A stretch of 41,873 nt of DNA from a virus, in the IMG/VR virus record IMGVR_UViG_3300022777_000088, one strand, 5' to 3'. Numbering within the stretch: position 1 is the stretch's first letter; every line of letters starts with the position of its first letter. The position numbers and the translations under genes are program-made. The notes under the pieces were generated by a model. The model was given only the letters and a program-made list of their open reading frames with translations, was not told the DNA's origin and did not search any database. This document shows positions 3-3,829 of the stretch, in pieces.

Positions 3-1166
3 AGCCGAACGTATCACCGAATCGCAGTTGGCATCGAAGACGCCGGATTTGAGATTCGTGATACCATTGACTGGATTTACGCAGAGGGGTTCGCGAAGAG
101 CCACAGCGTTAGTAAAGCAATCGACAAGCACTTTGGCAGAAAAGATGAACGAGAAAAGATCGGTCTGAAAGATAAGGCAAGCCGAAAAGACGGCTCGATG
201 GTCGATCGCGAGTCCTACGGCGGAGAGTGGAAAGATAATCCATCGGGATGGCAAGAGCGAGGACGCGACCCGTATGAAAGGGCAGCGGCAACCGACCAGG
301 CGGAGAAGTGGGACGGTTGGGATACCCAGCTCAAGCCCGCCAAAGAACCGATTCTGATTGCTCGCAAGCCCTTAGAAGGCACGGTAGCAGAGAACGTGTT
401 GGACCACGGCACCGGCGCTTTGAATATCGATGAGTGCCGTGTGGAAGTTCCAGACGGGGATGAGATTCGCGTTGGCTACGAAGGTGGGCCGGGCGACGCC
501 CTTGAAGGATGGACTCGCGATTGGATGGAAGACGAAACGCAGTGGGAAAACTACAAAGACCGTGCAGTTGACAAAGCGAATGAAAGCGGACGGTGGCCGC
601 CAAATGTCATTTTCGATCCGGCCATGGCAAAGCGGCTTGACGACCAGAGCGGACGCGATTTGACTGCAGGAGGGGACATCAATGAAAAAGAGCGAGAGCC
701 GACCAACTGCTACGCAGATCCGACAGGCACCGTTGGGCATGAAAGCTATGACGACGAAGGCGGCGCCTCAAGGTACTTCAAGACCATTCGTTATCACCCC
801 GAAGACAACCTCGGATTTTTCTACTGCCCAAAGGCAAAGAAGAGTGAGCGAAACCTTGGAGCAGATAACGACCACGTGACTGTCAAGCCCATAGAGCTTG
901 TGAGCTACCTTGTGAGGCTTCTTACTCCAAAAGGGGGGCACACCCTTGACCCGTTTGCCGGAAGCGGCACGACGGGCATGAGCGCCGTTCTGGAAGGATG
1001 TGAGGCGACCCTTGTGGAGATGGACGAGCACTACGTCGAGATCGCCGAGCAACGAGTCCGATACGCAAAAACCAACTACCAATCACTTCGCGAAGACATT
1101 TTTGGGGATCCATCAAACAACATCACAGATGAGCAAACCGAAGTCAACGACCACAACTTTTGGTAA
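3..1166 (+). CDS. DNA methyltransferase, N6/N4 beta class (5' part lies outside the window); intein-free paralog
   Basis: The frame is open from nt 3 (SRTYHRIAVGIEDAGFEIRDTIDWIYAEGF...), upstream of the track's start at 198. It contains LKPAKEPILIARKP, GRWPPN, HVTVKP and motif I LDPFAGSGTTG near the C-terminus. Confidence 0.92.
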   Translation, partial: SRTYHRIAVGIEDAGFEIRDTIDWIYAEGFAKSHSVSKAIDKHFGRKDEREKIGLKDKASRKDGSMVDRESYGGEWKDNPSGWQERGRDPYERAAATDQAEKWDGWDTQLKPAKEPILIARKPLEGTVAENVLDHGTGALNIDECRVEVPDGDEIRVGYEGGPGDALEGWTRDWMEDETQWENYKDRAVDKANESGRWPPNVIFDPAMAKRLDDQSGRDLTAGGDINEKEREPTNCYADPTGTVGHESYDDEGGASRYFKTIRYHPEDNLGFFYCPKAKKSERNLGADNDHVTVKPIELVSYLVRLLTPKGGHTLDPFAGSGTTGMSAVLEGCEATLVEMDEHYVEIAEQRVRYAKTNYQSLREDIFGDPSNNITDEQTEVNDHNFW

Positions 1167-3462
1167 TGGCGTGCTGCAAGGCGACGCCAAAGAAATGCTG
1201 AAAGAGCTTGAAGCGGACTCGTTCCATTCTTGCGTCACAGATCCGCCGTATGAACTCGGCTTTATGAACCGGCAGTGGGACGACAGCGGAATCGCGTTTG
1301 ACGTCGGGTTTTGGGAACAGGTCAAGCGAGTGCTCAAGCCGGGCGCACATCTTCTGGCATTCGGAGGATCTCGCACTCACCACCGCATGATGGCAGCGAT
1401 TGAAGATGCTGGATTTGAGATTCGTGATACGCTTATGTGGGTATATGGCTGTGTATCGCCAGATACAGATATACTTACTAGTGAAGGGTGGAAGTCTCAC
1501 GATGAAGTAAGTATAAACGGCACAGCAGTTTGCTATGATAAAAATACAGGACGTTATCAGTACGGTCCGATTCAGCAAAAGTTGGAGAAGTATAACCAAC
1601 TTAAAGCCTACCGAATTCAAGGAGATCGTACAGATCAAATCGTCTCTCCAGAGCACCGTGTCCTCGTTGAACGAGGCGGAAATCTCGAATTTGAAAGAGC
1701 GTGGAGATTGGCACGGCAACAGAAAATATCCGTACCCGTACTGGAAAATTTGCAATCAGTGCGAAATGATATTTCCGGCTATGGACAAATCGCAATCCAA
1801 ACAGAACAAAACTTGCAGCGAAAAGTGCGCAAAGAGCCTTATATCGAAAAACCGCAGTGGAAGACCGAAGATGAAAAACAGAGACTATACTACCGAAGTA
1901 ACTTGCAAAAATTGTGGAGAAGTCTTCTGGAAAAGACAAGATCGGACAGGTGGAAAGAATTTTTGTACAAAAGAATGCCATACGGAATGGCGAAGCGAAA
2001 GCGAAAAAGTTGCAAAACATATGCGGAAAATTGCTGCAACTGGAATAGAAGGATGGGACAAAAAGCAGTTGGAAAAACTCTCAGAACAGATGACCGGAAA
2101 AACAAATCCGAGTTGGAAGGGGGGAGTAACTTACAAGAGTGGAAAAGGAAACTACGACGATACTGTACTCGTCAAGTGCCCGAAAGAGTACGAAGAAATG
2201 GCAAGGAAAAACGGCTACGTGCTCGAACACAGGCTCAAAGTGGCAAAAGAAATCGGCAGGCCGCTCAAAAGCGAAGAAGTGGTGCATCACATAGACCACG
2301 ATCCTCAGAACAACGAAATGGAGAATTTAATGCTGTTTCGGAACAATCGAGAGCACAAACTTTACGAGCACAACGGCAGCCCGAAACCGATTTGGCAACC
2401 ATCAAACCAATAGAAAATTATGACGATATGGTTTGGTGCGTTAAAGTTCCCACCGGAGCTTTCGTCGCAAGAAGAAACGGAAAAATCTTCGTAACTGGAA
2501 ACAGCGGGTTCCCCAAAAACCACGACATTAGTAAAGCGATTGACGATCACTTTGATGAAGACAGGAAAGTGGTTGGCACAAAGCAGATTGGAAACTCAAG
2601 CCGCACGGAAGGAAAGGATTGGGAGTCCGACAGCGGATTTTCAAATGGCCAAGTCGAAGTCACTGAACCGGCGACAGAAGAAGCAAAGAAGTGGGAGGGT
2701 TGGGGCACTGCCCTAAAGCCGGGATACGAGCCGATTTGTCTCGCGCGAAAGCCACTGAGTGAAAATACTATTGCGGAAAACGTGCTGAAACACTCCACTG
2801 GAGCCTTGAACATTGACGGTTGTAGGATTGGGGGAGATGGAGGAACGCAATACGTCTCCGGTGGAGAGGGAAGCAAAAATGATTACGGGGACGGCCTCAA
2901 CTCAACGACCGACGTGAAAGTGGACGGGCTTGGGCGTTGGCCAAACAACTTGATGCTTGACGATCGGGCGTCGATTTTGCTTGACAGACAAAGCGGAGAC
3001 TGCCCGACAGGCGATACAGCAAGAACAGGAAAGCGAAAAGAGGGCAGTGGATGGGGGATGAGCGAACAGCAAAACAATCCGGCGTACAAAGACAAAGGCG
3101 GCGCTTCCCGCTTTTTCTACTGCCCGAAGGCACACAAAAACGAGCGTAACATCGGCGCCGACAACAATGACCACCCCACAGTCAAGCCCGTTGAGTTGAT
3201 TGCTTATCTCATTCGCCTCTCAACGCCGCCGGAAGGACGAACACTTGATCCATTCGGTGGAAGCGGGACGGCAGGGATTGCGGCAGTCTTGGAACAAAAG
3301 GACTTCGTGCTCATTGAAAAGAATAAAGACCACGCAGAGCTTGCGCAAAGCCGCATTGAACACGTGAGAAACAACATGGCGTCAGTGCGTAAGCAAATCT
3401 TCGAGGATCCTTCAAACAACTTGACAGAACAAGGCGCAAAGATTGACCATGACTTTTGGTAA
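1129..3462 (+). CDS. DNA methyltransferase, N6/N4 beta class, intein-containing
   Basis: Motif IV DPPY lies near the N-terminus, and HPTVKP plus motif I LDPFGGSGTAG near the C-terminus. It is collinear with the upstream paralog once 1450-2502 is removed. The start is either ATG 1129 or GTG 1171. Confidence 0.92.
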   Translation: MSKPKSTTTTFGNGVLQGDAKEMLKELEADSFHSCVTDPPYELGFMNRQWDDSGIAFDVGFWEQVKRVLKPGAHLLAFGGSRTHHRMMAAIEDAGFEIRDTLMWVYGCVSPDTDILTSEGWKSHDEVSINGTAVCYDKNTGRYQYGPIQQKLEKYNQLKAYRIQGDRTDQIVSPEHRVLVERGGNLEFERAWRLARQQKISVPVLENLQSVRNDISGYGQIAIQTEQNLQRKVRKEPYIEKPQWKTEDEKQRLYYRSNLQKLWRSLLEKTRSDRWKEFLYKRMPYGMAKRKRKSCKTYAENCCNWNRRMGQKAVGKTLRTDDRKNKSELEGGSNLQEWKRKLRRYCTRQVPERVRRNGKEKRLRARTQAQSGKRNRQAAQKRRSGASHRPRSSEQRNGEFNAVSEQSRAQTLRAQRQPETDLATIKPIENYDDMVWCVKVPTGAFVARRNGKIFVTGNSGFPKNHDISKAIDDHFDEDRKVVGTKQIGNSSRTEGKDWESDSGFSNGQVEVTEPATEEAKKWEGWGTALKPGYEPICLARKPLSENTIAENVLKHSTGALNIDGCRIGGDGGTQYVSGGEGSKNDYGDGLNSTTDVKVDGLGRWPNNLMLDDRASILLDRQSGDCPTGDTARTGKRKEGSGWGMSEQQNNPAYKDKGGASRFFYCPKAHKNERNIGADNNDHPTVKPVELIAYLIRLSTPPEGRTLDPFGGSGTAGIAAVLEQKDFVLIEKNKDHAELAQSRIEHVRNNMASVRKQIFEDPSNNLTEQGAKIDHDFW
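1450..2502 (+). mobile_element. Intein (351 aa, class 1-type: Cys1...Gly-Asn, Ser+1) in the methyltransferase
   Basis: Block A CVSPDTDILTSEGW, block B IVSPEHRVLV, block F MVWCVKVPTGAFVA and block G IFVTGN followed by Ser. Removal restores WVYG|SGFPK, matching WIYAEGFAK in the paralog. Confidence 0.93.
1535..2413 (+). CDS. HNH homing endonuclease with two Cys4 zinc-finger-like modules, nested in the +1 frame inside the intein
   Basis: CNQC..CSEKC and CKNC..CTKEC, the linker GKTNPSWKGG, and the HNH core YVLEHR...VVHHIDHDPQNNEMENL...H...H. The start codon is uncertain. Confidence 0.88.
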   Translation: MIKIQDVISTVRFSKSWRSITNLKPTEFKEIVQIKSSLQSTVSSLNEAEISNLKERGDWHGNRKYPYPYWKICNQCEMIFPAMDKSQSKQNKTCSEKCAKSLISKNRSGRPKMKNRDYTTEVTCKNCGEVFWKRQDRTGGKNFCTKECHTEWRSESEKVAKHMRKIAATGIEGWDKKQLEKLSEQMTGKTNPSWKGGVTYKSGKGNYDDTVLVKCPKEYEEMARKNGYVLEHRLKVAKEIGRPLKSEEVVHHIDHDPQNNEMENLMLFRNNREHKLYEHNGSPKPIWQPSNQ

Positions 3463-3829
3463 ACACGAACAGGAGTACATCAAAGAAAACGTCGAGCGGC
3501 TCATGATTGAGGCGTCGGCAGCAAGGTACTCCCTCATTGGCGTTCACGGCGACCCGCCTTACGACCACGCCAACTACTTTAGGTTTTCAAATGGCCCAAG
3601 GTGCGTGAACATGTGGATGGAAAACATGACTCACCTTAGAGAAAAGGGAGTAATCGGCCCGCAGATTGAAGTGGAGGTATGGGAAAACGAAGGGCAATCG
3701 TGGGCGGTGGTCGTAGACGATCGGGTGCCGGACGATTACATTCAGGACTCGCCCTGCTTCACTGGATACGCGGCGCCTCCTGAAAGCATTCTTCAAATCA
3801 TGAATGAAAAGTACGACTGGGATGACTGA
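3449..3829 (+). CDS. Hypothetical protein with N-terminal HExxY motif (FGKHEQEYI)
   Basis: The ATG overlaps the end of the MTase gene. The protein is acidic and carries the shared motif. Confidence 0.8.
   Translation: MTFGKHEQEYIKENVERLMIEASAARYSLIGVHGDPPYDHANYFRFSNGPRCVNMWMENMTHLREKGVIGPQIEVEVWENEGQSWAVVVDDRVPDDYIQDSPCFTGYAAPPESILQIMNEKYDWDD

Follow-up and report, generated by a model that had tools for sequence, protein, structure and literature searches.

Inteins whose nuclease is encoded outside the reading frame of the splicing domain have already been published, carrying EndoVII (Gosselin 2025) or LAGLIDADG (Phillips 2026) nucleases. We have analysed a 41,873-nucleotide stretch of viral DNA, here called the window, in which a predicted intein of an N6/N4 DNA methyltransferase overlaps a predicted HNH endonuclease gene in the +1 frame. 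The locus resembles the Gosselin 2025 inteins in that the full intein is open in frame 0, its middle is predicted to be unstructured and the nuclease occupies another frame of the same strand, and also in its patchy spread, for which invasion by a free-standing HEN was proposed. It shares with separate-frame-nuclease inteins an intact splicing domain, an open host frame, a nuclease in another frame, and purifying selection on the nuclease frame with a relaxed host frame. The nuclease, however, is of the HNH_3 type and matches none of those described (EndoVII, LAGLIDADG, VSR-like); the locus is therefore not one of the described separate-frame intein types. The cyanobacterial dnaX intein (Phillips, DeSimone, Gogarten, bioRxiv 10.64898/2026.09.14.751524) is similar in its overlapping nuclease ORF with a putative SD, its frame-dependent dN/dS and its coexisting empty, mini and full alleles. 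Its LAGLIDADG nuclease lies in a '+2 ORF' of a bacterial gene and the ancestor of that nuclease was not found, whereas the family of the window combines HNH, a phage methylase and intein-free nuclease relatives, and its site is also known with an allele that carries LAGLIDADG in frame. The word 'promoter' is absent from the dnaX intein paper.

An out-of-frame zinc-finger HNH in an N6/N4 phage methylase whose host frame stays open is known as the ShiLan domain (Arsenault, Gosselin, Gogarten, PMC11855218). An earlier sequence-only reading of the window had pointed to similar arrangements in actinobacteriophage methylases; that precedent, the ShiLan domain, is without a splicing domain. It also lies in frame 3 and further downstream, near a K-P-x-x-E-P motif; its HNH, 27-30% identical to that of the window, forms its own clade in the HNH tree, and intein-free +1 HNH relatives resemble it more than the window does. 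The window element was rejected as a ShiLan domain on its Hint domain, +1 frame and different insertion site. Closer precedents are the inteins with out-of-frame EndoVII or LAGLIDADG nucleases. The methylase intein of ShiLan gp65 and Dorothy gp75 (PMC9957025) is alike in its site, W-L-Y-G/S-G-F-P-K, and in its last 30 residues (74-81% identical), but lacks a +1 HNH and instead carries a LAGLIDADG domain in frame (327 aa). N6_N4 methylase inteins are also tabulated in PMC5050341. Searches of open-access papers and preprint main texts turned up no description of a methylase intein that carries an out-of-frame HNH, although subscription journals or the Gosselin 2025 intein table may list such alleles. 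Within the literature searched, an out-of-frame HNH_3 as intein nuclease is new.

The host gene, at 1171..3462 on the plus strand as are all features given here, encodes an N6/N4 DNA methyltransferase precursor (PF01555, E 2.5e-27) with a likely start at GTG1171; the ATG at 1166, overlapping the upstream stop, is out of frame with it. One frame-0 ORF, ending at 3462, contains the 351-aa intein (1450..2502), which is stop-free, begins with C1, ends with G350-N351 and is followed by the Ser+1 nucleophile of the C-extein (2503..2505, from sequence). The insertion, W-V-Y-G/S-G-F-P-K, lies at the ShiLan gp65 intein site, for which empty alleles are known. In the N-terminal splicing domain (1450..1740), C1, T61, Q63 and H69 are invariant in 58/58 alignment rows. 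The block B motif of inteins is T/S-x-x-H, fitted here by S66-P-E-H69 (His at 1654-1656). Alignment, AlphaFold and dN/dS (0.05 over codons 322-351) delimit the C-terminal splicing domain (2383..2502), with C330 in block F and T349-G350-N351 as block G; block F/G invariance is partly circular, these blocks having supplied the search pattern that retrieved most alleles. The AlphaFold model of frame 0 has pLDDT >90 for residues 1-100 and 311-350 and <50 for most of 178-307, and Foldseek ranks inteins and the Hint domains of hedgehog proteins at the top (best E 1e-5). The intein call is based on motifs, this model and Foldseek, which together bear out the splicing blocks proposed by the sequence-only reading. 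Its description of the middle as Arg/Lys-rich and out of character, in A-rich DNA, is equally borne out, with 27% K+R and 11% D+E compared with 9-17% and 16-17% in the exteins and next gene, and 39% A in the overlap.

C1, the terminal N351, S+1, a Hint fold assembled from both ends in the predicted model and a precise in-frame insertion with empty alleles all fit a class 1 intein. The penultimate His usual in this class is replaced by G350, a substitution with which a phage intein shows full splicing (PMC5050341). The same paper describes class 3 inteins as having no nucleophile at position 1, plus a Trp-Cys-Thr triplet. Class 3 is ruled out by C1; a Cys in block F and a Thr in block G are present, but two residues after the block B His the window intein has Val and 98/117 alleles have Cys. 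Motifs and model thus identify frame 0 as a likely self-splicing class 1 intein of the methylase. Were the insert not protein-spliced, remaining as a methylase loop as proposed for the ShiLan domain or leaving as an RNA intron, the lack of any frame-0 intein match in Pfam or NCBIfam, the missing penultimate His and the dispensability of the methylase, which a related contig skips, would follow easily. Against this stand the predicted and structurally matched Hint fold, the invariance of C1, H69 and N351, the low dN/dS of blocks F/G and a site and splicing blocks shared with the annotated ShiLan gp65 intein; nor does Rfam give a match at E<=1 in 1000-3600, although such absence does not exclude a ribozyme. 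We consider a lack of protein splicing very improbable.

The HNH endonuclease gene (1535..2413) encodes 292 aa from ATG1535, a provisional start, within a +1 frame that is stop-free over 1517-2413; gene calls for its four closest full-length relatives use the same start and give 291-294 aa. The protein matches HNH_3 (PF13392, E 6e-8, 32.6 bits, cut-off 24.8), and 8 of its 10 PHROG matches are HNH families. Two zinc fingers, CxxC-x17-CxxxC (1751..1828) and CxxC-x16-CxxxC (1904..1978), have the first and the last Cys pair, respectively, invariant in 58/58, and precede the catalytic region (2105..2368; NPxWKGG ... EHR ... HHxDH ... N ... H), which is supported by PF13392 and dN/dS and in which H232, H233, N241 and H255 are invariant, in keeping with an HNH beta-beta-alpha-metal motif. 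I-HmuI-type HNH homing endonucleases provide its best structural match (1u3e, a middling Z of 5.3, rmsd 3.8, 73 aligned); a PDB sequence search with the HNH protein gave 0 matches. I-HmuI is intron-encoded. The +1 protein is thus predicted to be an I-HmuI-like, two-zinc-finger HNH_3 nuclease with cutting activity, the identity given by the sequence-only reading. That reading had placed its stop just before block F, whereas the stop, at codon 321, falls within strand 1 of the C-terminal splicing domain as predicted, and the profile and structure comparisons it suggested recovered HNH_3 in +1 and Hint by AlphaFold and Foldseek but, as noted, no frame-0 intein in the profile libraries.

Openness of both frames exceeds chance. 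Resampling synonymous HNH codons predicts 19.6 frame-0 stops over 219 codons (P(open) 1e-11), and the converse frame-0 resampling predicts 5.3 +1 stops (P 2e-3). Over the HNH core, dN/dS in 28 matched pairs is 0.12 in +1 and 2.06 in frame 0, the per-frame contrast looked for by the sequence-only reading. Sequence comparison thus indicates that selection acts on the HNH protein, whereas the frame-0 middle only avoids stops. Selection on both frames along the entire overlap, as first supposed, therefore holds for HNH and narrows to codons 47-77 as the true two-frame part. In this doubly constrained stretch (1588..1680), to which the sequence-only reading had not drawn attention, block B in frame 0 overlaps a predicted HNH helix-loop-helix in +1, as indicated by stop counts, third positions and pLDDT. 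Across block B, 3 +1 stops were seen in the alleles when 194 were expected (in codons 47-72, 3 against 116), and third-position mismatch is 0.30, below the 0.61 of blocks F/G and the 0.53 of 12 control alleles. The predicted +1 helices 6-14 and 19-37 have a pLDDT of about 96, and the segment has no distinct fold match (Z<=4.1). A nonsense codon within finger 1 of L042 and L137 shows that decay happens.

The layout is widespread, with more than a hundred relatives identified by sequence. Sixty-one viral loci found from the block F/G pattern alone comprised 52 with the +1 HNH, 6 long alleles without HNH and 3 minis. All scans together yielded 189 complete inteins, which fall into 134 clusters; both frames are open in 117 of these, frame 0 has a stop in 1, and the rest are long (6) or mini (10) alleles. 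Family size is estimated, from one pattern, at about 250 stretches in the metagenome collection, so that the 'rare' case first suspected is not rare. A search with a single intein protein found only one distant intein. HNH was in frame 0 in none of the 134 distinct alleles scanned; the HNH profile scored against none of 120 methylase precursors, four regex matches in such precursors proved spurious as in-frame fusions, and no longer protein with an in-frame HNH fusion was found at E<=1e-10 among 1032 candidates, which is weak evidence. Assembly error, or two recent compensating indels that moved an in-frame HNH out of frame, is refuted by the 117 distinct alleles that share the offset, none being in frame, and we give it virtually no weight. 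The likely source run also matches 193-3600 with zero differences or gaps, and a second run of the same study, hence not independent, is gap-free over the parts matched (about 1380-1889 and 2350-2843).

These 117 alleles support, at the sequence level, the dual coding, separate nuclease polypeptide and selfish spread proposed by the sequence-only reading. We consider it probable that the element is a class 1 intein with an HNH gene nested one base out of frame, which splices as protein and whose nuclease, translated separately from a start of its own, cuts empty methylase alleles and so spreads the whole insert. The frame-0 middle would be a tolerated disordered linker, discarded upon splicing.

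In most alleles a sigma-70-type promoter may be hidden in intein codons 21-30, driving a message that would be leaderless, with an ATG 4-10 nt past the -10 box, or SD-led, with a start 40-55 nt past it. About 50 codons would code in both frames because the start lies upstream of block B. The extended -10-like box TGnTATGAT (1531..1539, intein codons 28-30) is conserved in the family, present in 90/117 alleles against 42 +/- 5 in a codon null, and accompanied by a -35 in 38 against 16 +/- 2.6 expected. An ATG at +7 occurs in 29 alleles (20 +/- 3 expected; null maximum 29, reached once in 300 draws). The box is partly present in minis too, its codons encode a conserved C-Y-D/N strand, and the window has no good -35; a simple promoter scan of the window found no promoter at this site. 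By codon 45 at the latest the +1 frame has opened in 113/117 alleles, an ATG lies ahead of the first finger in 116/117, and 112/113 carry one no later than codon 50, against 94.6 expected (sd 3.6). Leaderless and downstream starts are complementary (12 alleles with both, 62 and 27 with one, 16 with neither; Fisher p 5e-7, the alleles not being independent).

A programmed +1 frameshift in codons 46-95 would instead produce an N-extein/intein-N/HNH fusion and make the ATGs and -10 box by-products of conserved frame-0 residues. It would account for the opening of +1 by codon 45, for third positions of codons 51-77 that are locked whatever the GC, as a recoding signal could cause, for the 12/117 alleles, including the window, without ATG, GTG or TTG at both usual start positions, and for a small hairpin at codons 72-76 of the window. 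However, codons 44-85 show no consensus RNA structure in the 117 alleles, for which reason a conserved hairpin was dropped; the excess of ATG and -10 and the complementary starts are left over; an ATG no later than codon 50 is present in all 16 alleles whose last +1 stop falls within codons 36-45, where 11.4 would be expected; and intein-free HNH relatives have their own ATG. We regard a frameshift as improbable. Since block B is kept open in +1 and the -10 box is followed by leaderless or SD-led starts, HNH is probably a separate gene, and of the two routes first proposed internal initiation fits much better.

In the clade of the window (window, L089, L309) the ATG within the -10 box is retained although 2/3 members have a broken box; for the window itself we therefore favour ATG1535, read from the methylase message, and put it at slightly better than even. 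ATA1592, preceded by GGAG (1584..1594) where other alleles have an SD-led ATG or GTG, is a lesser candidate, TTG1667/1691 a weaker one still, and a frameshift in the window the weakest. TTG at codon 73 (L in 109/117) was rejected as a start, most alleles having no SD there. No SD motif was seen by eye upstream of 17 starts of window phage genes (two not true starts); with the lack of a -35, sigma-70 and SD arguments may therefore not fit this host.

Empty alleles dominate, with 75 of 80 N-extein relatives so classed (2 of the 75 with an odd or cut junction), 1 empty with a nested HNH, 2 with intein and 2 unclassified, and the two exteins nearest to the window are empty. On the extein tree, which has few columns and 75/155 branches unresolved, the distribution of HNH alleles requires 36 changes, of which well-supported branches enforce at least 9; the labels are still clustered beyond shuffles (36 vs 52). 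L021 and L053 have inteins 89% alike in nucleotides and exteins 53% alike in amino acids. Such scatter of alleles among empty methylases is as homing predicts. The HNH might alternatively be an independent parasite homing to its own site elsewhere in the methylase, with the intein a safe harbour that is co-converted or now mostly vertical. This would suit the 28 intein-free methylase loci (22 distinct) with the same HNH family and its members beside methylases in L251 and L300, as well as the HNH tree, in which intein-free HNHs fall at no fewer than 4 places among intein-borne ones and L058 carries an HNH of the intein-free type (99% SH-aLRT with L212); these are quick trees, which do not root the origin. 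Distances of splicing domain and HNH, however, co-vary (0.48), those of extein with splicing domain (0.14) or HNH (0.12) hardly, and the splicing domain itself incorporates the reading frame of the HNH and its start signals; we think an independent parasite unlikely. It differs from the preferred reading, a nuclease that spreads the whole insert, only in cut site and dependence.

As to origin, an HNH already in or beside the methylase family may have entered a splicing domain at the site served, replacing or standing in for a LAGLIDADG domain. The collaborative homing model, framed for group I introns (PMC2988022), similarly has a pre-adapted free nuclease enter a splicing element. A fuller history is possible but tentative, in which the HNH entered more than once (L058), evolved a promoter and start inside intein catalytic codons and gained its helical domain by overprinting block B; the domain would later have left the intein with the nuclease, since P0180, P0189 and P0224 still have it even though no block B His can be encoded by their DNA, and HNH, LAGLIDADG and mini alleles would compete for one site. 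A search for the DNA context of these three found none. If true, every stage in the birth of a mobile intein could be seen in extant alleles of a single methylase site. The alleles of this site, whether empty, mini, with LAGLIDADG or with an HNH that is intein-borne or intein-free, form a large collection on which to test the standing question of how splicing elements acquire homing nucleases. Block B also provides a clear example of a catalytic protein motif that is overlain by another selected frame and probably by a promoter. In practice, annotation reduces such alleles to plain methylases or 'decayed' inteins, since Pfam detects no intein and only one of the two frames survives gene calling.

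The upstream paralogous methyltransferase (3..1166; PF01555, E 1.5e-17) has an empty, diverged site, W-I-Y-A/E-G-F, between residues 83 and 84; P0004, by eye the same paralogue, has an intein there. The 'halophilic' label given to the phage appears to derive from its acidic proteins only, and its exonuclease neighbours match an uncultured phage and Flavobacterium and Microcystis phages at 37-43%.

In the window, frame 0, that of the methylase, is uninterrupted from the N-extein, the methylase part before the intein, through the intein at 1450-2502 to 3462, and a +1 frame is open from 1517 to 2413 with an ATG at 1535. In synonymous resampling of this overlap 19.6 frame-0 stops are expected (P open 1e-11). 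Pfam profiles identify the host precursor as an N6/N4 methylase (PF01555) and the +1 protein, its fold predicted at a mean pLDDT of 89.8, as HNH_3, in agreement with the sequence-only reading of an HNH endonuclease in this frame. Among 48,161 chains, I-HmuI is the top structural match of the +1 protein, with a middling Z of 5.3. The same reading placed an intein in frame 0. No intein profile of Pfam or NCBIfam matches this frame; in a model built on 58 alleles, residues 1-100 and 311-350 are predicted with pLDDT >90 around a low-confidence middle, and its Foldseek matches include inteins and hedgehog-type Hint domains, with a best E of 1e-5, supporting a Hint-like fold at both ends.

A homologous insert was found by protein search in 453 proteins, and 106 of the 120 listed fit the pattern W-x-Y-G/C...N/S-G-F-P-K (slashes, intein ends). 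A DNA pattern for splicing blocks F and G detected 61 loci in viral sequences, 9 in genomes and 120 of about 250 in metagenomes, and an HNH pattern 105 viral and 11 genome loci. The block F/G pattern is blind to the intein middle; of its 61 viral loci, 52 carry the +1 HNH, and the rest lack it, 6 as long alleles and 3 as minis, short alleles without nuclease. Over all scans, 189 complete inteins form 134 clusters at 97%: in 117 the HNH is in +1 and neither frame is interrupted, 1 has a frame-0 stop (codon 24), 6 are long and 10 mini; partial or short loci (49 in which the HNH is offset by +1 from block G, 2 at +2 on one contig and 14 others) stand outside this count. An arrangement at first considered possibly rare is widespread, and none of the loci of all scans has its HNH in frame 0. 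By eye, 5 of the 6 long alleles contain a LAGLIDADG-like motif; L022 is nearly the same as the gp65 intein of phage ShiLan; that intein occupies the same insertion site and is described as LAGLIDADG (PMC9957025). Traces of the HNH persist in the +1 frame of four minis (L014, L072, L131 and L143), which are deletion products of the HNH allele. Methylase P0005 has three inteins, a +1-type allele flanked by two of LAGLIDADG type by eye (PF14528 and PF14890 are listed), and the intein allele L064/L297 has a frameshift after the HNH.

Selection on both frames, as originally proposed, reduces in the frame-0 middle to avoidance of stops. In simple NG86 estimates on 28 matched pairs, a method biased in overlaps, the HNH core has a dN/dS of 0.12 when read in +1 and of 2.06 when read in frame 0, so that the frame-0 middle is a shadow of the HNH in which only stop avoidance is needed; the corresponding frame-0 value for blocks F/G is 0.05. 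The +1 frame is also open over block B, with 3 stops at codons 47-94 across alleles versus 194 expected from codon resampling; outside, stops are as expected (194 seen and 171 expected at codons 1-28, 139 and 124 at codons 322-350). Over the block B region, +1 stops occur in 6/6 minis without remnants and 4/6 long alleles. Third positions unable to make stops are locked as well (mismatch 0.30; blocks F/G, 0.61; 12 controls, 0.53), alike in low-GC and high-GC alleles, and no shared RNA structure was found over the block B overlap. The +1 peptide encoded there is predicted to form a helix-loop-helix, and its profile scores 28-43 bits with the database HNH proteins P0180, P0189 and P0224, whose residues, by our own reading, are incompatible with a block B His being encoded in the other frame; a search for their DNA found none. 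On this reading the three have no intact intein frame yet retain the helical peptide at the N-terminus, and P0189 has an extra N-terminal HTH-like segment and zinc finger. Shorter, acidic HNH proteins related to the window's clade (P0164, P0170, P0175, P0179, P0182, P0185 and P0192) are without the helical peptide.

By codon 45 the +1 frame has opened in 113 of 117 alleles, and an ATG precedes the first finger in 116. An extended -10 box, TGnTATRAT, is present at codons 28-30 in 90 alleles versus 42 +/- 5 in a codon null, accompanied in a minority by a -35 (18 versus 11 +/- 2 in the codon null, at 5 of 6 matches). Beyond the box, an ATG first occurs at +7 in 29 alleles, at +10 in 9, at +43 in 9 and at +49 in 34; in 20 no ATG follows it. 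Leaderless and downstream starts are complementary across alleles. ATG, GTG or TTG stands at one of the two usual places in 105 of 117 alleles; in most of the remaining 12, among them the window, ATN stands there instead. HNH production through a frameshift, rather than from its own start, is a less likely alternative. A stop lies within finger 1 in L042 and L137. In the window's clade (the window, L089 and L309), the ATG inside the -10 box is retained in 3/3 DNA sequences while the box is broken in 2, and no SD motif was seen upstream of genes in the window's phage. For these reasons a start of its own at ATG1535 is our best guess for the nuclease in the window.

The same HNH family also occurs without an intein, nested in +1 within an open methylase frame, at 28 loci (22 distinct: L193-L196, L198, L200, L206, L207, L210-L212, L217, L218, L232, L238, L241, L249, L250, L265, L270, L271 and L318, all in the variable region), beginning about 15-30 codons past the empty site, where the intein would be inserted. 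By eye, a -10-like hexamer precedes the ATG by 6-8 nt in several of them. HNHs adjoin methylase genes in L251, where the HNH sits between the halves of a split methylase, and in L300; L223/L231 is a nested HNH without intein that has an internal deletion. In an unrooted tree, intein-free HNHs fall in at least 4 spots among intein-borne HNHs, indicating repeated traffic between the two states, the direction being unrooted. In L058 the splicing domain has stops in +1 over block B, and the HNH is of the intein-free type, has its own ATG and groups with that of L212 at 99%. L058 is our best candidate for a second, independent HNH capture; a recombinational swap would leave the same picture.

On an extein tree of 158 rows and few columns, the HNH alleles require 36 changes (52 in shuffles), of which at least 9 are forced; L311 and L312, whose exteins are nearest to that of the window, are both empty. 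In matched pairs, exteins are further apart than inteins (dS 2.2-2.6 versus 0.6-1.0). P0004, by eye an orthologue of the window's upstream methylase paralogue, carries the intein at the site where that paralogue is empty.

The element is real, selected and widespread, a variant of recently described inteins with out-of-frame nucleases. Published examples include an intein with an EndoVII nuclease in frame 3 (10.1101/2025.01.02.630785) and a dnaX intein with a LAGLIDADG nuclease in another frame (10.64898/2026.09.14.751524). The out-of-frame HNHs in actinobacteriophage methylases named in the sequence-only reading correspond to the ShiLan domain (PMC11855218; PMC12613952 reportedly adds a case), which lies in the same methylase family and is 27-30% identical to the window's HNH but is in frame 3, at another insertion site and without a splicing domain, whereas the window has a +1 HNH with an intein. 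No report of an out-of-frame HNH in a methylase intein was found in the literature searched, which for the preprints covered main text. The additions here are the block B overlap, the start signals embedded in the intein and the HNH relatives outside inteins. Collaborative homing and internal promoters of homing nuclease genes are reviewed in PMC2988022.

The N6/N4 methylases encoded at window 3-1166 and 1171-3462 are paralogues in tandem whose C-terminal tails (..D-H-x-F-W) are nearly identical. Within 1164-1173 the stop of the upstream gene shares bases with an ATG at 1166 (TAATG) that is not in frame with the methylase, and the relative P0002 begins M-A-I-I-Q-G-D; on this basis one base seems to be missing and GTG1171 is the likely methylase start. 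The letters at 1164-1173 are identical in two runs. A related contig in run X1 lacks the second methylase gene, with a joint of 1166 to 3533. L309 (LR756508.1, 2707-5064), a close allele with 64% HNH identity in a 484-kb uncultured phage, has other genes in common with the window, and its record holds a second match place for the intein query. Long acidic proteins of 1448, 1005, 982 and 2879 aa (K+R about 2% in the two measured) occupy window 14558-41820, some with tail/virion PHROG matches and most unannotated.
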